DNA of 33,943 nucleotides from Candidatus Omnitrophota bacterium (GTDB lineage: Bacteria; Omnitrophota; Gorgyraeia; S143-82): contig JAMOOT010000259.1 of the NCBI GenBank assembly GCA_027065215.1, forward strand, positions 1 through 33,943, given 5' to 3'. The translations under genes and the position numbers were made by a program. The notes under the pieces were generated by a model that did not search any database, was not told the DNA's origin, and saw nothing but the letters and a program-made list of their open reading frames with translations. Shown here in pieces: positions 7,460 to 33,943 of this stretch (positions are counted from its first letter, which is position 1; each line of letters starts with the position of its first letter).

Positions 7460-8884
7460 ATGAGTTGGGAATCTGTTATTGGTTTGGAAGTCCATGTGCA
7501 ACTGAACACAGATACAAAGATATTCTGTTCTTGCAAAAATGAGTTTGGAGCAGAGCCAAATACCAATGTTTGTCCGGTATGTCTGGGGTTCCCTGGGGTC
7601 TTGCCAGTATTTAATAAACGAGTGTTGGAATACGCTATAAAAGTGGGTCTTGCCTTGAATTGTAAGATTGCCAGTTATACGAAGTTCGATCGAAAAAATT
7701 ATTTTTATCCTGATTTGCCCAAGGCCTATCAGATCTCTCAGTACGATATGCCAATATGTGAATCCGGGTATTTGGAGATAGAAGTAAATGGGGCCCTTAA
7801 GCGTATTGGGATAAAACGAGTTCATATGGAAGAGGACGCTGGCAAGTTGATACATGAAAAGGATTATTCATTAGTGGACTATAACCGCACAGGGGTTCCC
7901 CTATTAGAGATAGTTTCAGAGCCGGATCTTCGCTCACCTGATGAGGCCTATGAATATCTAACTGAGTTAAAGCAAATCGTGCGTTATCTTGGGGTCTCTG
8001 ATTGTGATATGGAGAAAGGATCTCTAAGGTGCGATGCGAATATTTCAGTGAGGAAAAAAGGCGACACACAGTTTGGGACGAAGACAGAAATCAAAAACCT
8101 GAATTCGTTTAAAGGTGTGCGTTCAGCATTGGAATATGAGATAAGACGCCAGATTAAATTATTAGAAGCGGGAGAGACGGTGATTCAAGAAACCAGACTT
8201 TGGTCGGCTGAAAGGCAGATCACAATCCCTATGCGAAGCAAAGAAGAGGCACACGATTATAGGTATTTCCCAGAACCAGATCTTCTTCCAATAGAGGTTT
8301 CATTAGATATGATAAACAACATTAGAAAAGAGTTACCTGAGATGCCTCGGGAAAGGAGACACCGGTTGGTGAAAGAGTATGGAATCACTGATTATGATGC
8401 TAATGTGATTTGTTTAGAACGAGATTTTGCCGATTACTTTGAATCCTGCGCGAAAGTTTGTAAGAGCCCTAAGCGGTGTGCTAACCTTATGATTACTATT
8501 CTCTCTGAGAAACTTAACGATTTAGGGATAGATATATCTCAGTTAAAAATTAGCCCTAACGCATTGGCTGAATTAGTGGACCTCTGGGAAGAAGGGAAGA
8601 TTAATAATCTGGTGGTAAAACAGGTCTTGGAGGAGATGATAAACACTGGTAAATCGGCCAAAGATATAGTAGAAGAAAAGGGATTGTCGCAGGTCTCGGA
8701 TGAAGGAGAATTAGAGCGTTTCGCTAAAGAAGCGATAGAGAAAAATCCCAAGGTTGTGCAAGATTATCGATCAGGGAAAAAGAATGCAGTTATGTTCCTT
8801 GTAGGACAGGTTATGAAGGCCACTCGGGGTAAGGCCAATCCCCAAAAGGTGAGGGAGTTGTTAGAGGGACTGTTGGAGGATTAA
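7460..8884 (+). CDS. gatB: Asp-tRNA(Asn)/Glu-tRNA(Gln) amidotransferase subunit B
   Basis: WESVIGLEVHVQL, CPVCLGFPGVLP, NYFYPDLPKAYQISQ and a C-terminal YqeY-like tail. ATG 7460 is preceded by AGGAGGA (7446-7452). Confidence 0.95.
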   Translation: MSWESVIGLEVHVQLNTDTKIFCSCKNEFGAEPNTNVCPVCLGFPGVLPVFNKRVLEYAIKVGLALNCKIASYTKFDRKNYFYPDLPKAYQISQYDMPICESGYLEIEVNGALKRIGIKRVHMEEDAGKLIHEKDYSLVDYNRTGVPLLEIVSEPDLRSPDEAYEYLTELKQIVRYLGVSDCDMEKGSLRCDANISVRKKGDTQFGTKTEIKNLNSFKGVRSALEYEIRRQIKLLEAGETVIQETRLWSAERQITIPMRSKEEAHDYRYFPEPDLLPIEVSLDMINNIRKELPEMPRERRHRLVKEYGITDYDANVICLERDFADYFESCAKVCKSPKRCANLMITILSEKLNDLGIDISQLKISPNALAELVDLWEEGKINNLVVKQVLEEMINTGKSAKDIVEEKGLSQVSDEGELERFAKEAIEKNPKVVQDYRSGKKNAVMFLVGQVMKATRGKANPQKVRELLEGLLED

Positions 8885-9186
8885 TGCGACTGGTTTGTGT
8901 AGGAGATAGGATTACTGTGGAGGCCCTGACAATAGTAGGGGCTGAGCCGGTGGAGGTCCAAGATAGGTCCTCTCTATTAGAACAGGTGGAAGGCCTTTTA
9001 AAGAATAAGAATAATATTGTCTTGGTAACTCAAAGTGTAGCAGAAGAGATACAGAATGAACTTGAAATGTGGCAGAAGAAATATTCTGGTAGCATAGTAG
9101 TAGTAATACCCGATATAAATAAAGATGTAGAAGTAGATATAAATCAACTTATGGCAGAAGTAGTGGGGGTGAGTTTTGGGGATTGA
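8884..9186 (+). CDS. V/A-type ATPase subunit F-like protein
   Basis: 100 aa. The pattern MRLVCVGDRITVEALTIVGAE...NIVLVTQSVAEEI...IVVVIPD resembles the ATP-synt_F family layout. ATG overlaps the gatB stop (TAATG). Assignment by eye only. Confidence 0.45.
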   Translation: MRLVCVGDRITVEALTIVGAEPVEVQDRSSLLEQVEGLLKNKNNIVLVTQSVAEEIQNELEMWQKKYSGSIVVVIPDINKDVEVDINQLMAEVVGVSFGD

Positions 9187-9769
9187 ACAGATTAAGAATT
9201 ACATAAAAGATAAGGTTGAAGAAAAGGTTCAGGATGTATTACGCAGGGCTCATTTGGTTAAAGAACGGGAAATAAGCCAAGCAAAGAAGAAATTAGACCT
9301 GTGGATTGAAGAACAGACAAAGGCGTTTATGCGTGAGAAAATATCATTAATAGCGCAATACAAGGCAAGGACTTATAGGGAAATGTCTTTGGAAGAGACG
9401 AAACTAAAAGAACAACTGTGGATAGATTTTTTTGCTGCAGTGAAGGAAAGAGTGGAGTCATTGCGGTCTGACCATCAGAAATATACTACCTTATTACTCA
9501 GGTTTATGGAGTCTGCTCGTAAATATTATTCCAATGGTGTAAATGTCTTGGTTAATCCTAATGATGTGTCTCTGATGAAAGATTTGATTGAGATGCATTA
9601 TAAAGGTGTCGATATATCTGTCTTTCCTGAAAGTTCAGTGCGTATAGGATTTGTCTTGGTTGATAAAGACAGAGGTGCAAAGGTAAATTACGATATTTTG
9701 ACGATCTTAGATGCTGAAAGAGAAAGAATTAAGATGTATTTCTTTTCTAAATTGATGGATAAACGTTAA
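9176..9769 (+). CDS. V/A-type ATPase subunit E-like protein (coiled coil plus C-terminal globular domain)
   Basis: 197 aa. TTG start at 9176, after GGGGGTGA. Long charged N-terminal helix, then a C-terminal ...IGFVLVDKDRGAKVNYDILTILD... region typical of E/stator subunits. FliH/YscL-like stator proteins cannot be excluded. Confidence 0.4.
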   Translation: MGIEQIKNYIKDKVEEKVQDVLRRAHLVKEREISQAKKKLDLWIEEQTKAFMREKISLIAQYKARTYREMSLEETKLKEQLWIDFFAAVKERVESLRSDHQKYTTLLLRFMESARKYYSNGVNVLVNPNDVSLMKDLIEMHYKGVDISVFPESSVRIGFVLVDKDRGAKVNYDILTILDAERERIKMYFFSKLMDKR

Positions 9770-11164: not shown

Positions 11165-12247
11165 ATGGGTAAGTACGTTTTTGTCGCGTTAGTTTTTTTG
11201 AGTATCTTTTTAACCTTTTTCTTCGCAATTGGATGGAAAGATAATGTGCCTATGCACCGGCCGATTTTTTCATCTTCCAGGTTTATTTATGACTACGCAC
11301 ATCTTGTTTCTCCAGAAGGTAAAGCAAGACTGGAGAAGTTTCTCGAACATCTTTGGCGAGATTACGATATAGAACTAATTGCAATTACGACCCCATCCTT
11401 AGGCAACTATACTATATCGGAGTGGGCCAACATGATTTTTGAAAACTGGCATGTGGGTAAAAATACACGCGGTGAGAAGGGGATTCTGTTTGTGGTTGCT
11501 CCGTATGAAAAAAAGGTGCGTCTCGAGATAGGTAGAGGTTTGGAGGGAGTTTTTACTGATGCGTTTGTAGGGTATATAGAACGTGAGCAGATGAAACCTT
11601 TTTTTGAAGAGGCAAGGGTCGGTGTGGGGGTTGAAGCGACACTTGAACTTATTGTAAGCAGGATTGAGAAATTTATTAAGGAAGGAAGATACAACCCCAC
11701 AGAAGGTAGAAAACAAGAGGGAGGTTTTGCTTCTTCTGGTGCGGGCGCACAGAAGAATGTGGATATAGGGAGTGTTCATCGTCAGAAGAAGGATGTGGTT
11801 ACCGAAGATTTGAAGGAATATTTCAGTGCGCAACCTACTCCTCAGCTCACATTAGAGAGGTATCTTGAGGCCTGTAGCCGCCATATAAAAGACCCAAATC
11901 TGGGAATATATACTGAGGAGACAAAAGAGTTTTTTAGAAACTGGACAGTGACGAATGCCCAGATGGATAATATGAGAATGTATGAAGGTGTCCCTTTTAA
12001 GTTGATGATAGAAGGAGACTATGCGGTAATTTTCTATCCTGATAAAGACTGGACCTACAGCCCTTTCTTTTTGAAAAAAGGGCCGGCGGGGTGGCAACTT
12101 GACTTTGCTACGATGTCTAAGGTTATAAGATTTAATCAGAACAACTACTGGTTTTTTGTTTCATTTGATCATCCTTATATGTTCGCTTTTCGTAAGTATA
12201 TGATAGATGAGAATGGGTTTGTATGGTTTAAGTATAGGAAGAGGTAG
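11165..12247 (+). CDS. TPM-domain membrane protein with uncharacterised C-terminal domain
   Basis: N-terminal TM/signal anchor. TPM (YgcG/TLP18.3-like) core: YDYAHLVS...IELIAITTPSLG...WHVGKNTRGEKGILFVVAPYEKKVRLEIGRGLEG. A Gly-rich linker is followed by about 175 aa that are homologous to the middle of ORF 12565..14379. Confidence 0.8.
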   Translation: MGKYVFVALVFLSIFLTFFFAIGWKDNVPMHRPIFSSSRFIYDYAHLVSPEGKARLEKFLEHLWRDYDIELIAITTPSLGNYTISEWANMIFENWHVGKNTRGEKGILFVVAPYEKKVRLEIGRGLEGVFTDAFVGYIEREQMKPFFEEARVGVGVEATLELIVSRIEKFIKEGRYNPTEGRKQEGGFASSGAGAQKNVDIGSVHRQKKDVVTEDLKEYFSAQPTPQLTLERYLEACSRHIKDPNLGIYTEETKEFFRNWTVTNAQMDNMRMYEGVPFKLMIEGDYAVIFYPDKDWTYSPFFLKKGPAGWQLDFATMSKVIRFNQNNYWFFVSFDHPYMFAFRKYMIDENGFVWFKYRKR

Positions 12248-12266
12248 TTTTAGTAGGGGGAAGGAG

Positions 12267-12560
12267 ATGATAAGGACTTGGAAAGACAAACTAAAATCAT
12301 TGTTTGTGTTTGGCGGGAGAAAGATTATTACTGAAATTGGAGCCGTTAGTGCTTCAGATAGGAAAAACCTTGGCTGGCGCTATGGTCACAAAACGCTTAT
12401 TAAAGTGTCGTTATTAGAAGAGAAACAAACTGCTGAAAGGAGTTTGGGTATAGAGATTGTATATAAAGGTATTGGTTGCTACAGAGTATCACCAATAGTT
12501 TTGAGCAAACAAGAGGTGCAAGAGTTAATAGAATTACTTAGATCCGCGGTTCAAAGATAA
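12267..12560 (+). CDS. hypothetical small soluble protein (97 aa)
   Basis: ATG 12267 directly follows AAGGAG (12261-12266). It lies 19 nt after the previous stop and 4 nt before the next start. No TM segment and no motif I recognise. Confidence 0.5.
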   Translation: MIRTWKDKLKSLFVFGGRKIITEIGAVSASDRKNLGWRYGHKTLIKVSLLEEKQTAERSLGIEIVYKGIGCYRVSPIVLSKQEVQELIELLRSAVQR

Positions 12561-12564
12561 AAAT

Positions 12565-14379
12565 ATGAAGTGCAAGAAGGAGACAGAAAGAACAGTGAAG
12601 AGTAAGTTGCAAATTTTTTTGGTTAGCCTTATTATTTTATGCACCTCACTGGATTATATTTACGCTTTTTCATCTGACAATTTGGCATACAAAATAGGGA
12701 TGTTTCTTAAAAAAGGTAAAGTGCCGCCGAGAAGGCCTTCCCAGAGCAGATACTGTTTTGATTTTTCCGGTGTGGTTCCGAAAGATGTAGTTAGGGATAT
12801 TGATGGTTATGGCAGAAGCCTGAGAGAGGAGTTTGATATTGATTTTGTCGTTATTGTTACGCCATCTATTCCAGGGGAAGACATCAGTACTTTTGCTGCG
12901 GATATCTTCAGCAAATGGGAAATTGGTAAAGAAACAAAGGGGCGGAAGGGTATTCTTATACTCATCGCTCAGGAAGATCAAAAGGTAAAGATAGAGGTGG
13001 GGTACGATTTAGAGAGCATATATTCTGACCTCTATGTTGCTCGCGTTGAGCGAGAAATACTTGAAGAATTTTTAGCGCAGGCCGACTGGAAGAGAGGGTT
13101 TTTAGCCACTATAGAGAATTTTATAGAACGAACTTATCATATGCAGGATAAAGGGGTAAACGTAAGAGGAGTTACAGGGACAGCAAGACTGGGGTATTAC
13201 TCAGGTGGTGCAGGAGCAAAAGGGACGTTTGATTTCGGAGCAGCGTTGAGTAAACCGTTACCACAGACGCAGCAAGACTTACGCAAGTATTTTGGTGCAC
13301 AGCCAACGCCAGAACTTGCTTTTCGGAGATATATGGAATTCTGTGCGCGTAATATGAAGGATTACACTCTGGATCTGTTTAATGACCGGACAAAATTTTT
13401 CTTCAGTTACTGGCCCACAGCAAGCGGACAAAGGCGTTCGGAGGCCGAAGAGTGGGATGGGTTAAGTTATGAAGTCCGGCAGAAGGGTAAGTGGGCGGTG
13501 GTATTTCATCCTGACTCCGATTATATGAAAATGGCGCAGCATCCCGTATATCTTATTGAAAAAACAGATAAAGGGTGGCAAATGGATTTAGATGCTATGG
13601 CAAGGGGGCTTTCTTATGGAGGAAGGTTTGTCCACTGGGTCAATGGAGCTTGGCTTTATCCTTATGTAGAACTTTTTATGGATGATTATACTTTGAAACC
13701 GAATACCGCCTGTCTTATCAGAAAAAAAACCGATGTTGGTACGTTTGGTATATATTTTCTGGGTACAGGTCTATATAACCCTGCAGAGCCAGGTGTACAT
13801 ATTGGAGTGTGGGAGAAAATACAAGATAAGGACAGGAACGGGTTGCGCACAGGAGATAGCATAGTATCTATTGACGGGAAGAAAGTTCCGCGTGGCAGGG
13901 AAGGCGAGAGAATAGTAACGCGTTATCTTATAAATAATGTAAAAGCCGGAGACCGGCATCACCTGCGTATCTGGCGGGGATGGCGTTTTATTGAGCTGGA
14001 TGTTGAAGCGCAACCTGTTGGTAATGATTCATTCAGCGATTTTAGAAGGTGCCTTGCAGTACCGCGTGTGTGGATGGGTGTATATATCGGGATGACTAAC
14101 GAGGAAGAAGAAAAATATGTAAATGGACCCTCCACAGTTGTGCTGGATGTCTATCCTGGTAGCCCTGCGGATAAAGCAGGACTAAAGAGAGGTGATATCA
14201 TTTGTAAAGTTGGTGGTAAACGCGCTCCCTATGATGAACTTCTCCCGGGCCAGTTTCTGAAGATTTTAAGAAGTCATAAAGCCGGAGATAGGCTTAAGCT
14301 GGAAGTGTTGCGTAACCTCAAAGAGCGAAAAGCGGTAACGGTTGTATTAGAAGAAACAGAGCATAAGGGTTACTATTAG
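12565..14379 (+). CDS. TPM-domain membrane protein fused to the shared unknown domain and two PDZ domains
   Basis: N-terminal TM. TPM core (DIDFVVIVTPSI...WEIGKETKGRKGILILIAQEDQKVKIEVGYDLES). The middle region parallels the C-terminus of ORF 11165 (YFGAQPTPELAFRRYMEFCARNMKD versus YFSAQPTPQLTLERYLEACSRHIKD). PDZ-like GLRTGDSIVSIDGKKV and a classic PDZ, PGSPADKAGLKRGDIICKVGGK. Confidence 0.8.
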   Translation: MKCKKETERTVKSKLQIFLVSLIILCTSLDYIYAFSSDNLAYKIGMFLKKGKVPPRRPSQSRYCFDFSGVVPKDVVRDIDGYGRSLREEFDIDFVVIVTPSIPGEDISTFAADIFSKWEIGKETKGRKGILILIAQEDQKVKIEVGYDLESIYSDLYVARVEREILEEFLAQADWKRGFLATIENFIERTYHMQDKGVNVRGVTGTARLGYYSGGAGAKGTFDFGAALSKPLPQTQQDLRKYFGAQPTPELAFRRYMEFCARNMKDYTLDLFNDRTKFFFSYWPTASGQRRSEAEEWDGLSYEVRQKGKWAVVFHPDSDYMKMAQHPVYLIEKTDKGWQMDLDAMARGLSYGGRFVHWVNGAWLYPYVELFMDDYTLKPNTACLIRKKTDVGTFGIYFLGTGLYNPAEPGVHIGVWEKIQDKDRNGLRTGDSIVSIDGKKVPRGREGERIVTRYLINNVKAGDRHHLRIWRGWRFIELDVEAQPVGNDSFSDFRRCLAVPRVWMGVYIGMTNEEEEKYVNGPSTVVLDVYPGSPADKAGLKRGDIICKVGGKRAPYDELLPGQFLKILRSHKAGDRLKLEVLRNLKERKAVTVVLEETEHKGYY

Positions 14380-14636
14380 GTGAGTTTTAATGGCATAGAA
14401 GACACTGCCCTGTAGGTACTATTGATTGTTTTTTTTGAAGACATTCGATTAGCGTATTATCTCTGATATTTTGCTGTAGATAGATGGTATCCTTTGTTTG
14501 ATTTATTGTTAGATATATTACCTTTTTTTCTTGTCCATAAGTTACTTAGAGCCTCCAGTCGAGTGAAATGAGTTTATCTCCAAACACTTCTTAAGCAGGG
14601 AAGATCCATTGGAGGTTAAAATACTACCTTGTCCAG

Positions 14637-14665
14637 TTGACAGGCCTTATTTGATAGATTTTACT
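14637..14665 (+). promoter_or_regulatory. candidate sigma70-type promoter for the giant ORF
   Basis: Perfect -35 TTGACA (14637-14642), a 17-nt spacer, and a weak -10 TTTACT (14660-14665), about 37 nt upstream of ATG 14702. The -10 lacks the conserved A2, so the call is weak. Confidence 0.25.
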
Positions 14666-14701
14666 TCTATTAGTAGGGGGTTTTATTGTTGAGGGTAAAT
14701 A

Positions 14702-17700
14702 ATGAAGATGATGCATAGGTTATTTCACATTTGTTTGTCATTCTTAGTATTATTTTCGTTTATGCCTACCAATGCTCAATCCTATGGATTGGGTGATTTG
14801 AGTAATATCTCTGGAGTGGTAGGAGTAAAGGTGGAGGGAGGGCTGCCATCGTTGTTGTTCGCTGAGGGGGAAAATAGTGAGGAGATGGAGAGGTTGTTTT
14901 TCCAGTTATATGGGTTAGATGATCCAGAGAGGGAGTTGTGGGTAAATCTAAAGCCCGGAGTGGGGAGCAAGGGATTGATAGGGAGATGGGTAGGGTGTAT
15001 GGATGTGGGGAGGTACTTGTTCGAGACTGATCTGAGGTTGAAAGAGGATGCCACAAGGATGGTTGATGAGGTATTGGAGGATTATGGAATAGATGTGGGG
15101 GAAGTAGGGTTGGAGATGAGATTTTGGATAGAGGGGGGAGATGTAAGGATGAACGAGTATGAGGATGGAATGTTGATAGATGAGGCGAGATTGAAGGTGA
15201 GGGCAGAAGTAAAAGGATCGACTAAAGAGGGGGTAGAGGAATTAAATAGGTTGATTAACGGATTGGTAATACCAAAGTTAAAGGAAGAGGTGAACGAAGG
15301 GAAGAGATATAAAAGGTTAAGGGAATTGTATCGCTTGTATATAGTAAGTAGGTGGTTAAAAGAAAAGGAAGTGGGTAATGGGCTGGTGGAGAGGGTGGCA
15401 TACTATTATGGGAGGGTTGGCAGTAAGGAATGGATGCTGTTGGATGTGTTGAGAAGATATTTGATGATGTATGAAGGCGTTGATGGGGATATTGGGGGAT
15501 GTGTGGTGGGAGGGGTGTATCTTGGTAAAGTAGGAAGGATAATGAAGCGGGTGGCAGAAGGTGGTATGGGAGGCATAAGGAAGATAGGTAGGGTAGGAAG
15601 GAGGATACTATTCAATAAAAAATTTGTTGTGTTTATGGCCAGTTTGATGTTTGCGGTGCAGACCGTGGGTGGAAGTATATCGTTGGCAAGAGGGTTGGAT
15701 TTTGGAGAGATGCGAATTGGACAGTATGTATCTGAGAATAGGGAACTCAAGGAACAAATCCACGAAATACTTAAAGATGTAAAAATTACCTCAAGCAAAG
15801 ATGTTCTAACTTCTTTGTATAGTAGATGGAAAGACCAATTCTCTGTAATAATTCAAGGAAAAGGGGATAAGGTTGATAGTATCGTCATAAAAGACATCAG
15901 AAAGGCCATTATTTTATCTTTTCATCCTATTTACGGTGACCTTTTTGGCAATCTTTTGGTTAAGGCCCAGAGATGTAAAATACAGCAGCAGATAACAATG
16001 GGAGATATCAATTGGATAATGGATTTTTATAGAAACTATTCTAAGTATAGAAATACACGTCGTTATCAGAATTCTATGAGATTACTTGGTAGTTTGTTTC
16101 AGAATGATTCGTTTTTGAAGTTATTTAATCAAATAAAGGGAAAGGAATTATGGGGGCCTAATAAATGGAGGATAGAAGCATTAAATTCATGGCTGTATCC
16201 GGAAACGGCCAAATCTTGGTCCCTTACAGAAGATTCTTCTCTTTTAAAATTTACAAAGGATAAGGAGGAAATTAAAAAGAATCTTGATAAGTATAAGAAT
16301 TTGGCAAAGAGGTTGTTTTATTATTGGGTATATGCAAAATCGGGCGATAGATCGCTTATAGATTCGTATATCAAGAAGGTTACAGAAGAGATTAAGTTGG
16401 AGATGAGAGAGATTGGTGAAAAAGATATGGCAGAATATTCAGTGAAATTTTATGTGTATGAAAGTAAGATACGGGGAAAAGAGATGAAAAAGATATTCCC
16501 TGGGTTATTTGAATTGGCAAACTCAGGGGACCCATATGCTACTGCACTTTGGATAAATGTGGAGTTAGAACTTAGGTATTGGGCTGGTGGCAGATCTGGT
16601 TTTAGATTTAGCAATTTAAAGACTATCTTAAGCGATGTTTATATAAATTTGGGTAAATTAACGGATGAAGAGAAAAGAGATTTTGTTAAGTTTATGTGGT
16701 GGCTTTACTTCCGCTCGGGTAAGAGTTTTGTTCCTCCTAACGTGCGGAAAAAGGTCTTTTCTGAGTTGATTCACCATTTGGATCTGGGAGAATATTTGGA
16801 TACTATAAGTGGTATGACTGATTTTATGAAGGGTTTCAATAAACTTATAGATGATGAAGATTCCATGTTTTCATTGAGATGGGAGTTGATGCTTAAGCAC
16901 TACGAGATTTTAAGAATCGTCAAAACTACTAACGAATGGGAGAAGAATAATTTTGGACATATTGAGAAAAACCCAATTTTCGTCTTACCAATCCCGATTA
17001 TAGATAATCTGGACAGCAGGTGGATAAGATTTTTCATATTAGCGCAGCGATTTGGTTTTGAAGAGAGGTTATTAAGATTGATAGATTTGGATAAGATTAT
17101 TAAGGTTAATCTCGCGATACCATTAAGGTTATCGGATAATTTTTGGAGTGCTAAGAAAGATGAGGTGGAAGATTTCCTTTCGTTTTTCCTTTTTAGAAAA
17201 GGCGTATACGATCCAAGATTTGAGTATGGTACGTTTAATTTTTCCCAATTGTTTTTTCTATATTTTTCGGATATCTTCCAGAAAGGGTTTAAGGATATAA
17301 AGGATAGGCAATTGAAGTTTGTTTTGTTGTGTGGTGTTATGTCTTGGTTGATTGACAATGGGAAATATGATGTGCAAAAAGGAGGATTTGATTTTAATGA
17401 AGATCAGATTAGGTCAGCGATAAAACATGTGAGAAAGAGTTGGGAGTTGATGAAAGACAGAAAAATAACCTTTGCTAAAGGGTTATATAATTTAGTGGAG
17501 ATCTGTGATTCTAATTTTCCAAACACAGGGAAAGACGGATATGAGAAACTTTTGTCACCTAACACTTCGATTAGATATAGAGATAAAGATAAATTCTTAA
17601 AGGGTATTAAGGACATCAAAGGGCCATTGTGGTTGGGAATTATGATCCATGGAGGGGCAGATGTGGCAAAATATAAGGAAGGGGATCGAGATAATGCTTT

Positions 17701-18598
17701 TTATCTTGTCTCGCCAGATAAGAAAGGACGCATTACTGTAGATGAGATGGTAGATGCATTAGAGGGGTATGCTAAAAATAATAACGGGGACCTGTCTAAG
17801 ATGGTTATTGTAGCAGGAAATTGCTATTCTGGTTTTTGGATAAATGTATTAAAGAAATTAGGGAAAAATGTAGAAATCAAAGGCGCCCCGATTGTCCTAT
17901 CTGGGGCCTTGCCGACCTCACCTCAATTGGGATTTACGAATGTCTTTTTCTCCATTTTTGGATCTAATAATATCGGTACATTTTGGGATGTTGCAATACA
18001 GGAGTTTTTAGAAGATCAACATAAAGATGGAAAAACGACTGCCACTATATATGATTTGTTTAACTATTTAGCCGATAAGAAGTTGCCCTTTTTCCCGATG
18101 ATTTATTCGGTGGAAAAAGAAGGTAAAGGGCAGAAGAAAGGAGTTCGTTTTCTCCTTTTATCTCTGGGAACTCCTTTTGGCGTGTTTCCGTGGATGCCTA
18201 CGGAAGAAAAGGAACCGGAGGAATTGTTTAGAGAATTTTTGGACAATATAGAGGATTGGGTAGAGGAGACCGGGTATCAGAGTTTGTTTGTAAACTGGTT
18301 AAGGGAGAATAAGGATAGATTACTTTCGCTTGTGAAGGATAATAGGACCAGGGAAATGGGAAGGGTATCGGTGGAGGGAATTAAGGATTGGGTGGAAAAG
18401 ATAGAGAGGGGAGAGAATCTATTGGAGGAGGATGCGGAAATGGCAATAGTGAAAATAGCAGGGATGATTAGGGATAATCCAGAGGGCTTTGTGAAAGCAG
18501 TTACTGAGAAAATAGAGGAGATATTTGCCCAGTCTAATGAATTGGCTAAGGAGAAGGGAGGCATAGAATTTTCGGATAGGGTTCTCTTGGGGGATTAA
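14702..18598 (+). CDS. orphan 1,298-aa envelope protein with C-terminal caspase-fold (clan CD, C13/CHAT-like) signature
   Basis: Uninterrupted 3.9-kb ORF with GAGGGT 6-11 nt upstream of the ATG. N-terminal hydrophobic signal-like segment (MKMMHRLFHICLSFLVLFSFMPTNA|QS). Second hydrophobic helix at aa 308-329 (15623-15688). LGIMIHGG (His983, 17648-17650) and MVIVAGNCYSG (Cys1041, 17822-17824), each preceded by a hydrophobic strand. Acidic helical tail. No other family recognised. Confidence 0.85.
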   Translation: MKMMHRLFHICLSFLVLFSFMPTNAQSYGLGDLSNISGVVGVKVEGGLPSLLFAEGENSEEMERLFFQLYGLDDPERELWVNLKPGVGSKGLIGRWVGCMDVGRYLFETDLRLKEDATRMVDEVLEDYGIDVGEVGLEMRFWIEGGDVRMNEYEDGMLIDEARLKVRAEVKGSTKEGVEELNRLINGLVIPKLKEEVNEGKRYKRLRELYRLYIVSRWLKEKEVGNGLVERVAYYYGRVGSKEWMLLDVLRRYLMMYEGVDGDIGGCVVGGVYLGKVGRIMKRVAEGGMGGIRKIGRVGRRILFNKKFVVFMASLMFAVQTVGGSISLARGLDFGEMRIGQYVSENRELKEQIHEILKDVKITSSKDVLTSLYSRWKDQFSVIIQGKGDKVDSIVIKDIRKAIILSFHPIYGDLFGNLLVKAQRCKIQQQITMGDINWIMDFYRNYSKYRNTRRYQNSMRLLGSLFQNDSFLKLFNQIKGKELWGPNKWRIEALNSWLYPETAKSWSLTEDSSLLKFTKDKEEIKKNLDKYKNLAKRLFYYWVYAKSGDRSLIDSYIKKVTEEIKLEMREIGEKDMAEYSVKFYVYESKIRGKEMKKIFPGLFELANSGDPYATALWINVELELRYWAGGRSGFRFSNLKTILSDVYINLGKLTDEEKRDFVKFMWWLYFRSGKSFVPPNVRKKVFSELIHHLDLGEYLDTISGMTDFMKGFNKLIDDEDSMFSLRWELMLKHYEILRIVKTTNEWEKNNFGHIEKNPIFVLPIPIIDNLDSRWIRFFILAQRFGFEERLLRLIDLDKIIKVNLAIPLRLSDNFWSAKKDEVEDFLSFFLFRKGVYDPRFEYGTFNFSQLFFLYFSDIFQKGFKDIKDRQLKFVLLCGVMSWLIDNGKYDVQKGGFDFNEDQIRSAIKHVRKSWELMKDRKITFAKGLYNLVEICDSNFPNTGKDGYEKLLSPNTSIRYRDKDKFLKGIKDIKGPLWLGIMIHGGADVAKYKEGDRDNAFYLVSPDKKGRITVDEMVDALEGYAKNNNGDLSKMVIVAGNCYSGFWINVLKKLGKNVEIKGAPIVLSGALPTSPQLGFTNVFFSIFGSNNIGTFWDVAIQEFLEDQHKDGKTTATIYDLFNYLADKKLPFFPMIYSVEKEGKGQKKGVRFLLLSLGTPFGVFPWMPTEEKEPEELFREFLDNIEDWVEETGYQSLFVNWLRENKDRLLSLVKDNRTREMGRVSVEGIKDWVEKIERGENLLEEDAEMAIVKIAGMIRDNPEGFVKAVTEKIEEIFAQSNELAKEKGGIEFSDRVLLGD
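14800..15620 (+). other. cytosine-depleted, G-rich block (5' part of giant ORF)
   Basis: Hand count gives about 43 C in 14821-15600 (about 5-6 %). The 60-nt line 15061-15120 has 0 C and 28 G. Sampled neighbouring genes have about 17-20 % C. Confidence 0.8.
14962..14995 (+). other. canonical G-quadruplex motif on the coding strand
   Basis: GGGG-agcaa-GGG-attgata-GGG-agat-GGG-ta-GGG: five G-tracts with loops of 7 nt or less. A second, looser motif lies at 15485-15515 (GGGG-N5-GGGGG-N9-GGG-N1-GGGG). This is a sequence motif only; folding is untested. Confidence 0.5.
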
Positions 18599-30109: not shown

Positions 30110-33100
30110 ATGGAGGATGGGATGGATTACTCTTCTCTTCGTTCAGTTGGTTTGTATGAGCCCAGGTTTGAACACGATGCCTGTGGAGTGGGTTTCCTTT
30201 GTGATGTAAAAGGGAATCGGTCTAATAAATTGGTTCAAGATGCCCTTACTGTTTTAAAACGTTTGGCCCATCGAGGGGCGGTTGGGGCTGATCCTAAGAC
30301 AGGGGATGGGGCAGGGATCCTCATTCAGATCCCTCATGAGTTTTTCTTGGAGATTTCTGACTCCATAGGGATCGATCTCCCGAATTTGGGTTACTATGGT
30401 ACAGGTATGGTTTTTCTTCCAAGAAAGAGAGAGGAGAGAGAATACTGTAAGGCTGTGTTCTCAAAGGTGGTTGAAGAAGAGGGACAACATCTTTTGGGGT
30501 GGCGGGAGGTGCCGATAGATGACTCAGATATTGGGAAAGGTGCAAAAGAGGCTGAGCCGATAATAGAACAGGTCTTTATAAAGCGCGCAAAGGGGCTGAC
30601 AAATCAGGTAGATTTTGAACGTCGTCTTTATGTTATTCGTAAACGGGTAGAAAACACGGTTCGTGCTTCCGATATTAGCCAGAAGGGTTTTTTCTATATC
30701 ACAAATCTTTCTTCTCGCACGTTCGCATTTAAAGGGTTGTTAATGCCTCATCAAGTTGAGGATTTTTATGTAGATTTAAAGAATCCCAAGATCAAGAGTG
30801 CGATAGTATTGGTTCATTCTCGTTATAGTACTAATACATTTCCTACTTGGGATTTAGCCCAACCATTTAGGTTTCTTGCTCACAATGGGGAGATAAATAC
30901 CTTACGAGGAAATATTAATTGGATGCGAGCAAGGGAAGGTCTGCTTTCTTCTCCTCTTTTTGGGGATGCAATGGAATTGATAAAACCGATAATTGTTCCG
31001 GGAGGAAGTGATTCAGCCACTATTGATAATGTGTTTGAACTTTTGGTCTTGGCAGGCAAATCTTTGCCTGAGGCTATGCTGATGCTTGTCCCTGCGGCGT
31101 GGGAACAAGATAAATTGATGGATGAGAAGTTGCGCGATTTCTACAAATTCCACGCCTGTCTTATGGAGCCGTGGGATGGTCCGGCATCTATTGCCTTTAC
31201 CGATGGCAGAAGTGTTGGCGCTGTGCTGGATCGGAATGGATTGAGGCCAGCCAGGTATATCATTACCAAAGATGATTTTGTCGTTATGGCATCTGAGATG
31301 GGGGTTTTGGATATAGACCCGAGTAGAATAGCGGTCTCTGGTAGGCTTGAACCTGGTAAAATGTTTTATATTGATACAGAGGAGGGTAGAATAGTCCACG
31401 ATGAAGAGATAAAGGATAGGGTTTCTTCCCGTAGGCCTTATGGAGTATGGTTAAGACAATGGTTGGTTGATGTCAATGATCTTCCTACACCAAAGAAATT
31501 ACCTCCTAAAAGCGATAATCTCCTTAGAGATCTACAGGCCTTTGGGTATTCACGGGAAGATTTGAAGGTGTTAATCAAACCTATGGCTGAGACAGGTAAA
31601 GAACCGATTGGGTCTATGGGCAATGATACACCGCATGCGGTTCTGTCTAATCAGCCTAAATTGCTTTATGATTATTTTAAACAGTTATTTGCCCAGGTGA
31701 CCAATCCAGCCATTGACCCAATAAGGGAAGAGATAGTAATGTCCTTAGATAGTTTTATCGGTCCGCAGAAAAATATATTGGAGGAGACACCTGAGCACTG
31801 CCATAAACTTTATCTTAGAGAACCAATTCTTACCAATGAGATGTTGGAGAGGATTCGAGAGATAGATGAGAGAGGCTTTAAGTGCAAGAGGATTTCTGTG
31901 TTGTTTGATATTGAAGAAAGAGATAATTTCACGAAGGCGTTGGACCGAATATGTAGAGAAGTGGAGGATGCAATAGATGAGGGGTACTCATTTATTATTC
32001 TCTCGGACCGTGGAATATCCGAGAATAGGGCAGCACTTCCTATGCTCTTGGCAGTTGGAGCGGTACACCAGCATCTGGTTAGAAGGGCAAAGAGGACTCA
32101 GATAGGTGTTATAGTGGAAAGTGCTGAGCCAAGAGAGGTGCATCACTTTGCGCTTCTTTTTGGATATGGAGCGGATGCGATTAATCCTTATCTTGCCTAT
32201 GAAACGGTGGAGTACCTTTGGAGAGAAGGCCTATTAGATGTCGGCTCTCTTGAAGAGGGAATTGAGAATTATCGTAAGGCTGTAGATAAAGGGATATTGA
32301 AGATTTTGTCTAAGATGGGGATTTCTACTCTTCGGAGTTATCGAGGAGCGCAGATATTTGAAGCCTTAGGGATTCATGAGGAGGTAATTGAAAGGTGTTT
32401 TACTGGGACGCCCTCTCGTATAGGTGGAGTTGATTTTGATATTATAAGAGAGGAGACAGTTCGTCGGCATAGGATAGCATTTCCAGAAGAAAAGAGGGAG
32501 ATTCATATACCATATCTCGTAACAGGTGGGATTTATCAGTGGAAGAAGGATGGTGAGTTTCATTTGTGGAATCCTGCTACTATTGCTTCCCTACAGGATG
32601 CAGTGCGTAAAAATGATTATGGCCGGTACAAAGAGTTTGCCGGGATGATAAACGATCAGTCTAAACAGCCCACAACTCTTCGAAGTTTGTTGAAGTTTAA
32701 GAAAACGAATCCTATTCCAATAGAGGAGGTAGAGTCAGTAGAAAATATCTTGACCCGTTTTGTTACTGGGGCTATGAGTTTTGGTTCTATCAGCCGAGGT
32801 GCCCACGAATCACTTGCTATTGCTATGAATCGAATTGGAGGCAAGTCTAATACAGGTGAAGGGGGAGAAGATCCAAGGAGGTTTTTGCCTTTGCCAAATG
32901 GTGATTCTACCCGTAGCGCGATAAAACAGGTTGCATCAGGTAGGTTTGGGGTTACCACAAATTATTTGGTGAACAGCGATGAGATACAGATAAAGATTGC
33001 TCAGGGGGCAAAACCGGGTGAAGGAGGGCAGTTGCCGGGCCATAAGGTAAGTGTAATAATTGCTCGGACTCGTTATACTACACCGGGTGTGACGCTTATC

Positions 33101-33943
33101 TCCCCGCCGCCCCACCATGATATATACTCTATTGAGGATCTGGCTCAGTTGATATTTGACTTGAAGAATGTCAATCCCTCCTCTCGGGTGAGTGTCAAGT
33201 TAGTCTCTGAAGTTGGAGTAGGGACGATTGCCGCAGGAGTGGCTAAGGGGCATGCGGATATGATTTTGATCTCTGGAGGGGATGGTGGGACAGGCGCTTC
33301 ACCCCTTAGTTCTATCAGACACGCTGGTCTCCCTTGGGAATTAGGGTTGTCTGAGACACATCAAACCTTAGTCCTTAATGACTTGAGGTCGCGTGTTAGA
33401 CTTCAAACCGATGGACAGATGCGTACTGGTAGGGATGTGGCGATTGCAACGATTTTGGGTGCAGAAGAATATGGTTTTTGCACAGCAGCTCTTATTGTTA
33501 TGGGATGTGTTATGTTGCGTCATTGCCATCTAAATAATTGTTCTGTAGGAGTGGCTACTCAGGATGAGATCTTACAGAAGCGTTTTAGGGGCCGACCAGA
33601 ATATCTGGTAAATTATCTTCGGTTTGTTGCGCAGGAGTTTAGGGAGATTATGGCACAATTGGGTGTTCGCACCGTTGATGAGTTGGTAGGCAGGACAGAC
33701 CTTTTGGAACTTGATACGGCTATATTACCGTGGAAGGCAAAGAAGATAGATTACTCGCGCATACTCTATAAGCCGAAGGTCCCTCCTACAGTTGGGATCT
33801 ATTGTCAGATACCCCAGGATCATGGGATCGATAGGGTTTTGGATAGAAAACTCATTGAGTTTGCTAAACCAGCATTGGATAAAGGAGAGAGGGTAAAGGC
33901 CGAATTTGAGATACGAAATACAGATCGTACAACGGGTGCAATG
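30110..33943 (+). CDS. gltB: glutamate synthase large subunit, 3'-truncated by the window end
   Basis: Missing from the ORF track because it has no stop inside the window. I translated the first ~1.3 kb continuously and spot-checked motifs further downstream, and 30110 to 33943 is exactly 1,278 codons. EHDACGVGF (Ntn Cys at codon 25), [22 protein letters not shown], and the FMN domain [12 protein letters not shown]. An in-frame TAA immediately precedes ATG 30110. ATG 30122, preceded by GGAGGA, is the alternative start. Confidence 0.95.

Follow-up and report, generated by a model that had tools for sequence, protein, structure and literature searches.

The DNA analysed here, hereafter the window, is a stretch of 33,943 nucleotides from a Candidatus Omnitrophota bacterium (assembly GCA_027065215.1, contig JAMOOT010000259.1). 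Its forward strand carries a complete open reading frame (ORF; 14702..18598, +) that starts with ATG and encodes 1,298 amino acids (aa) followed by a stop codon. A spacer of 322 nt (14380..14701, +) separates the ORF from a TPM/PDZ gene ending at 14379, and a Shine-Dalgarno-like GAGGG lies at 14691-14695, 6 nt ahead of the ATG. An earlier sequence-only reading had placed the gene and its spacer correctly and had failed to recognise a family for it; our searches agree, as neither Pfam, NCBIfam, PADLOC nor the PDB yielded a sequence match for the protein, and phmmer and profile searches of PDB sequences with the protein and its relatives returned nothing. The gene is real and conserved, and it encodes a multidomain protein that is targeted to the membrane and belongs to a large unannotated superfamily found mostly in Candidatus Omnitrophota. 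By sequence the protein stands outside every described family; its motif and likely fold make it probably a new, very divergent caspase-like peptidase in a new architecture.

The protein begins with a Sec-type signal-like N-terminus (aa 1-26, 14702..14779, +), composed of MKMMHR, a hydrophobic core and PTNA-QS, with a cleavage site placed by eye between PTNA and QS. The Kyte-Doolittle windows over the cut-off fall within its hydropathy peak at aa 3-25, and relatives of the protein begin with the same type of sequence. It is followed by a conserved domain of ~245 aa (the N-domain; aa 27-271, 14780..15514, +) that ends in a beta-hairpin bearing G270-G271. The stretch of about 280 aa previously described as rich in G, E, R and V is confirmed, with 15% G, 11.5% E, 11% V and 9% R in aa 27-305. 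Relatives of the N-domain were collected by an exhaustive HMMER search, with a two-sequence profile, of 1.84 billion cluster representatives (50% identity), in which 2,061 clusters match at E <= 1e-3, nearly all of them only over profile positions ~30-250 (aa ~65-285). These proteins range from 367 to 4,294 aa in length and differ in their middles, or cargo, which may be Metallophos plus FHA, phosphoglucomutase or nothing recognisable. Those that have a source name are called 'hypothetical protein', almost always from metagenome-assembled genomes (MAGs) of Candidatus Omnitrophota/Omnitrophica. Among the GTDB species representatives, a scan with alignment A1 gave a single N-domain locus, from a MAG that carries the label 'Planctomycetia', and a scan with alignment A3 found no relative.

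Eleven residues are invariant in a 22-sequence alignment of the N-domain (A7), namely W80, L83, G103, D110, K114, R140, W142, N198, R207, G270 and G271, most of which fall in the motifs W80-V-N-L, D110-L-R-L-K114, R140-x-W142, N198, R207 and the terminal GG. A hidden Markov model built from A7 matches only the 1,298-aa ORF in the window (E 1.7e-80; A7 includes this ORF), and Pfam and NCBIfam scans of the N-domain gave no match. The AlphaFold2 (AF2) model of aa 27-313 has a predicted local distance difference test score (pLDDT) of 83 and a predicted TM-score (pTM) of 0.85, and consists of two beta-hairpins, several long helices and the terminal hairpin that bears the GG. A Foldseek search of the PDB with this model found no credible neighbour (best probability 0.13, TM-score ~0.1). 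A relationship to ClyA-type toxins (MakE/MakA) was considered and rejected on those values (probability <= 0.13, TM-score ~0.1). The former description of this part as a sensing or adhesive ectodomain has to be abandoned in favour of a lineage-wide module with no known fold neighbour.

The superfamily is also recognisable at the other end of the protein. The last residues (aa 1285-1298, KGGIEFSDRVLLGD; 18554..18595, +) contain the superfamily motif K-G-G-I-x-[FL], here K1285-G-G-I-E-F, which begins 13 residues before the C-terminus. In the closer relatives, the motif extends to K-G-G-I-x-[LF]-S-x-h-S-L and lies 5-18 residues from the end; it is present in all six members of the subfamily described below and in 42 long N-domain proteins. 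The window protein also agrees with the slightly looser form K-G-G-[IVL]-x-[FL] by which membership of the superfamily was judged. The motif resembles the GG hairpin that closes the N-domain. A proposal that the C-terminal hairpin and the N-domain have to share one compartment was neither supported nor excluded by crude counts of the transmembrane segments between them, which are of mixed parity (0, 1, 2, 3, ...). A literature search with the motif strings returned nothing relevant.

In a second group of N-domain proteins (P0025, P0039, P0043, P0044, P0052 and many others), the C-terminus is formed by another module, ...LLLCLADIFKLEEENAxESSPELREALVIVDSQ, which is strongly conserved; P0025 has an internal GGIDL motif ~110 aa upstream of it. 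Another N-domain protein, of 1,265 aa, with an unrelated middle and the end SQGGIILN, is encoded at L007:3043-6840, two genes upstream of P0010, with ParA between them. As P0010 is a paralogue within the subfamily of the 1,298-aa protein, the superfamily is multi-copy within a single genome.

The part of the protein downstream of the N-domain has a much narrower distribution. When 5.8 billion proteins were searched by word index, the 1,298-aa protein had three matches: a near-identical copy from the same species, the full-length P0002 (1,385 aa, 38% identity) and P0003, which matches at the N-terminus only. Full-length homologues, with 27-38% identity, are P0002, P0009, P0010 and L009, all in other assemblies, and the middle and C-terminal parts are common to six sequences only: the window protein, P0002, P0008, P0009, P0010 and the metagenome ORF L009:1420-5217. 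P0002 and P0010 are paralogues from one assembly, and P0008 and P0009 from another single assembly. The label of orphan is thus correct for annotation but not for ancestry, with full-length homologues in at least three other assemblies and the N-domain in more than 2,000 clusters. A second assembly of the same species has the gene split between two ORFs of one 98.8-kb contig, with the N-terminal part in P0004 (566 aa) and the C-terminal part in P0005 (731 aa), which suggests a frameshift or a mistake of assembly near aa 566.

The six sequences share a pair of candidate catalytic residues, His983 (with Gly984; 17648..17653, +) and Cys1041 (with Asn1040; 17819..17824, +). As the sequence-only reading had it, they lie 58 residues apart and each follows a hydrophobic run (LWLGIMI-H983-G984 and MVIVAGN-C1041). 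The conservation check proposed with that reading was made on this subfamily. An alignment of five C-terminal sequences (aa 844-1169, 28-49% identity to the window protein) has 25 invariant columns out of 326, among them both H983-G984 and N1040-C1041, and the sixth sequence retains both pairs, as THG and ACNC. These are the only invariant His and Cys; the two other His and two other Cys of the window protein in aa 844-1169 are not conserved. The spacing from His to Cys is 49-58 residues in the five members measured. In clan CD peptidases, the dyad is reportedly, after Chen and colleagues in 1998 and MEROPS, a His-Gly following a hydrophobic block and then a Cys following a second block. The fold of the clan is a three-layer alpha/beta/alpha one with the caspase sheet topology, in which the His follows one strand of a parallel sheet and the Cys the next, and the residue before the Cys is usually small (Ala, Ser or Gly), as in QACxG, DSCHSG and EACESG. 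The clan CD signature proposed for this protein therefore stands in its order, strand context and invariance, but not in the residue before the Cys, which is Asn1040 rather than a small residue.

Structure prediction places the pair in an alpha/beta domain of ~220 aa (the C-domain; aa 919-1140, 17456..18121, +), a candidate for a caspase/metacaspase-like (clan CD) fold by its AF2 model and Foldseek matches. The AF2 model, computed from a five-sequence alignment (A6), has a mean pLDDT of 76.4 and a pTM of 0.81. In it, the strand at aa 976-981 is followed, two residues on, by H983-G984, then by a hairpin (FYLV / RIT), the helix VDEMVDALEGYAKN, the strand at aa 1034-1038 and, three residues beyond its end, the Cys of N1040-C1041; a further helix, a strand and more helices follow, so that strands and helices alternate through the core. 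This arrangement is as expected for clan CD, in which the His stands behind one parallel strand and the Cys behind the next. The best PDB match of the model is 3BIJ (E 7.7e-3, TM-score 0.24-0.29), whose chains A, C and B reach probabilities of 0.90, 0.77 and 0.51. This structure is GSU0716, a metacaspase-like Peptidase_C14 protein with His84-Gly85 and Cys135 (PMC3881575). Other caspase-fold proteins also appear among the matches: Csx29/CHAT (7ZOQ) ranks 11th and c-FLIP (3H13) 36th. The sole hhalign alignment of the domain with a profile of metacaspases (A8, built from PDB metacaspase sequences) sets HG on HG, with LWLGIMIHGG on LFLHYSGHGG and FYLVSPDKKGRITVDEM on VIYPVDFETQGPIIDDEM, and pairs FYLVSPD..GRITVDEM with the metacaspase VIYPVDF..GPIIDDEM, all in the expected register.

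Several results weigh against this assignment. The structural model was built on an alignment of five sequences only, and its Foldseek search of the PDB gave no match at E <= 1e-3, the TM-scores lying at 0.24-0.30 with large root-mean-square deviations. The hhalign alignment, in spite of its register, is not significant (P = 0.27, probability 0.2%). No Pfam family of clan CD (C11, C13, C14, C25, C50, C80, CHAT) matches at E <= 10, even with the whole protein, P0002, P0003 and the five domain sequences all scanned, so the profile check suggested for C13, C14, CHAT and C11 came out negative, and profile searches of PDB sequences with the C-domain were empty. The invariant Asn before the Cys departs from the clan, and flavodoxin-like or Rossmann-like domains score close behind 3BIJ. 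The caspase-fold reading is thus partly supported: the invariant HG and Cys, the alpha/beta model and a C14 protein as top match speak for it, and the empty profile searches, marginal Foldseek values (E 0.008 and TM-score ~0.25 for a top match of probability 0.90) and hhalign P-value do not. It is plausible and internally coherent, not statistically established.

The charges around the transmembrane helix are a further point on the opposing side. The sole internal hydrophobic helix (aa 308-329) and the basic cluster RKIGRVGRRILFNKK ahead of it together span aa 293-329 (15578..15688, +), and both had been noted before; the only internal Kyte-Doolittle windows over the cut-off lie within aa 308-328, and the 20 residues upstream contain seven K/R and no D/E. 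The helix and its flanks, RRILFNKK / FVVFMASLMFAVQTV / GGSISLA|R, resemble a signal peptide. Each of the five members examined has a net positive charge (+2 to +7) in the upstream flank. This conflicts with a topology in which the N-terminal signal peptide is cleaved, the N-domain lies in the periplasm and the helix stops transfer, so as to leave the C-terminal part in the cytoplasm. The charges contradict a simple exported N-domain with a cytoplasmic C-part, as the sequence-only reading had suspected for this protein, and do so across the whole subfamily.

Based on the above data, we propose that the 1,298-aa protein is a membrane-targeted, very divergent metacaspase-like (clan CD) cysteine peptidase that would use the dyad His983/Cys1041 and work on its own, with envelope or external proteins as its targets. 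Resting on motif and model, this proposal seems to us somewhat probable; homology of the C-domain to clan CD, its catalysis, its location and its substrate are what we infer from them. The superfamily N-terminal module would target the protein to the membrane, and the cargo would consist of the ~590-aa K/F-rich middle region, helical where modelled, followed by the ~220-aa alpha/beta domain. In this domain, His983 would serve as general base and Cys1041 as nucleophile, both putatively located where neighbouring parallel strands have their C-terminal ends. The helical region may regulate or position the peptidase domain, and the membrane-tethered enzyme would cleave (or transpeptidate) envelope or external protein substrates, acting alone and outside any dedicated multi-gene system.

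A different fold is the strongest alternative, one we consider unlikely. The C-domain could be a non-peptidase three-layer sandwich of the flavodoxin-like or Rossmann-like type that binds a cofactor, a metal or a nucleotide or is receiver-like, its His and Cys then being ligands or redox residues. MetH B12-binding domains (ranks 3-4, E 0.02-0.05), CheY-like receivers (probability 0.47-0.57) and GTPases of the signal recognition particle all score near 3BIJ, and the lack of a Foldseek match at E <= 1e-3 or a clan CD profile match, the non-significant hhalign result and the atypical Asn ahead of the Cys also count in its favour. The highest-probability Foldseek matches, however, are three chains of a C14 protein, and a His and then a Cys behind consecutive strands, with a metacaspase-like spacing and a metacaspase-like strand-helix segment between them, form the clan CD layout. 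Moreover, the B12 motif DxHxxG is not conserved at the His (IMIHGG, IETHGK, IVLHGQ, VDSHGE, VDTHGF), and the receiver-type Asp pattern was not seen by eye.

The caspase fold might also be correct and the proposed function wrong. The domain could be a non-catalytic scaffold or pseudo-protease, like c-FLIP, whose protease-like domain is among the Foldseek matches, or a transpeptidase or ligase that processes, for example, the conserved C-terminal K-G-G-I-x-[FL] motif of the superfamily; clan CD includes transamidases and ligases such as GPI8 and butelase. We hold this alternative to be improbable. All six members retain the complete dyad, an argument against a pseudo-enzyme, and the caspase-like cargo is known from only ~4 genomes, as opposed to a GG motif that runs through a superfamily of more than 2,000 clusters. 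A general role of the protein in processing the GG motif was rejected on account of this narrow phyletic distribution. Very improbable is a chance resemblance of the His/Cys pattern in a lineage-specific domain of new function, with AF2 misled by a shallow alignment: only five sequences stand behind the C-domain model and every similarity statistic is marginal, but the pTM is high, 96 residues reach pLDDT >= 90, including the strands that bear the His and the Cys, the five models agree (mean pLDDT 75.0-76.4), and both residues are invariant at 26-49% overall identity.

Other weak matches of the C-terminal region were set aside. An EF-hand_6 match (PF13405, E 0.028) at SPDKKGRITVDEM (window 17708-17776, aa 1003-1025), which is also seen in P0002, was rejected, as loop positions 1 and 5 are neither acidic nor conserved; the stretch aligns with the metacaspase segment 'G-P-I-I-D-D-E-M'. 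Matches to Peptidase_C57 (E 0.13) and Forkhead (E 0.13) were rejected as chance. In BFVD, the best Foldseek match of the model is an uncharacterised 232-aa Solivirus protein, A0A3G5AFQ8 (probability 0.97, E 4.7e-3, TMt 0.41), which is uninformative.

The two regions that flank the C-domain complete the protein. The K/F-rich middle (~590 aa, aa 330-918; 15689..17455, +) contains no Pfam domain, is 31% identical to that of P0002 and is conserved only within the six-member subfamily. Its supposed richness in K, F, W, Y and N is clear for K (10.5%) and F (7.5%), W, Y and N being only mildly raised. The end of this region, aa 844-918, is modelled by AF2 as helices packed on the C-domain (model residues 4-74; helical segment aa 847-917). 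On the other side lies an acidic tail (aa 1141-1284, 18122..18553, +) with 18% E and a conserved LFV-W-L..N-D motif; the part of it covered by the AF2 model (aa 1141-1169) is of low confidence.

Among known systems, the metacaspase-like proteins or orthocaspases (MEROPS C14, PF00656), represented by GSU0716 (3BIJ) and yeast Yca1 (4F6O), provide the best structural match to the alpha/beta sandwich. The C-domain shares with them a His-Gly behind one hydrophobic strand and a Cys-x-S/P-G behind the next, and the His-to-Cys spacing of 49-58 residues brackets those of GSU0716 (51) and Yca1 (56). The segment 'short strand - G-x-I-x-x-(D/E)-E-M helix' also resembles its counterpart in Yca1, VIYPVDF..GPIIDDEM. 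Unlike the metacaspases, the protein shows no significant sequence or profile similarity to the family, has Asn-Cys in place of Ser-Cys or Ala-Cys, lacks recognisable counterparts of the conserved acidic S1 residues and, at 1,298 aa, embeds its domain at the C-terminal end of a chain that also has a signal-like N-terminus and a transmembrane helix.

The second comparison is with TPR-CHAT Csx29 of Craspase (7ZOQ), in which a long helical region likewise precedes a C-terminal caspase-like domain; 7ZOQ_A has, together with 3H13, the top query-normalised TM-score among the matches listed (0.30). CHAT proteases carry 'hhhhHG ... hhhhxxxC.sG' motifs, similar to those seen here. In contrast to them, the protein has no PF12770 or TPR match, is not accompanied by genes of CRISPR, CBASS or gasdermin systems, gave no match in PADLOC and is membrane-targeted.

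A third comparison concerns the long or giant membrane and surface proteins of Omnitrophota, for which passages of two preprints describe a signal-peptide-plus-transmembrane architecture, enzymatic cargo and unannotated N-termini (10.1101/2023.11.21.568195, West-Roberts et al. 2023; 10.64898/2026.06.07.730766). The protein studied here resembles these, as far as those passages describe them, in its signal-peptide-plus-transmembrane architecture and in belonging to a family with enzymatic cargo such as phosphoglucomutase, and it likewise comes from a mostly Omnitrophota family, to judge by the source names of its N-domain relatives. At only 1,298 aa, it is far from giant. The N-domain, the C-terminal GG motif and a caspase-like cargo are not described in the passages that term searches drew from either preprint, and in both the word 'caspase' occurs 0 times.

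The gene neighbourhood shows no constant partner. The neighbours differ in every genome examined: in the window, LemA/LemA/TPM/TPM-PDZ genes lie upstream and an aminotransferase gene downstream; P0002 has a divergent MarR beside it; P0009 lies beside genes for a glycerophosphotransferase (Glyphos_transf, PF04464) and a CTP-transferase, and P0010 beside ParA and a Laminin_G protein. No operon partner or defence island is conserved across these genomes, and a PADLOC scan of the protein and its relatives gave no credible match. With changing neighbours and no PADLOC match, we find no membership in a defence system of the kind that employs Craspase, CBASS/CHAT or gasdermin-activating proteases, and the suggestion that the protein is an effector in a signalling or cell-death system loses its footing.

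All credible genes of the window lie on the forward strand, G+C is ~41%, and GC skew stays above zero throughout in 1-kb steps (0.16 to 0.61), with its maximum inside the N-domain region of the 1,298-aa ORF. No Rfam family was matched in the window, which contains no rRNA, and promoter and terminator scans performed no better than chance. All neighbouring genes scanned match one or more Pfam families at E <= 0.001 (two of these matches fall below Pfam's own cut-off), with the exception of a 117-aa ORF at 12207-12560, between two TPM-domain genes of the LemA/TPM/PDZ cluster, a position kept in L003. Directly 3' of gatB, at 8884-9769, two small ORFs match V-type ATPase subunits F (PF01990, above the Pfam cut-off) and E (PF01991, weak and below it); the window contains no other V-ATPase subunits. 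A long ORF at 30110-33943 runs open-ended past the end of the window and looks by eye like the large subunit of glutamate synthase (GltB-like).

A bolder reading of the superfamily would treat the N-domain and the GG-hairpin motif as an undescribed bracket that exports, anchors or polymerises enzymatic cargo, which in the present protein would be a new clan CD protease family, displayed on the surface of a host-dependent or predatory bacterium and attacking host envelope proteins. One conceivable mechanism is that the C-terminal K-G-G-I-x-[FL] hairpin takes the place of the homologous GG hairpin that closes the N-domain, or extends it, in cis or between subunits. We offer this reading as speculation and give it a small chance of being right.

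If the C-domain is a working clan CD protease, it would define a family too divergent for any current profile, tethered to the membrane and unlinked to the defence and cell-death operons in which bacterial relatives of caspases usually occur. The by-product of the analysis is arguably more interesting: an N-domain that lacks a structural neighbour in the PDB, paired with a C-terminal motif, brackets variable cargo in more than 2,000 clusters. Together they offer a concrete handle on the targeting and assembly of these long, possibly host-directed, mostly Omnitrophota proteins.

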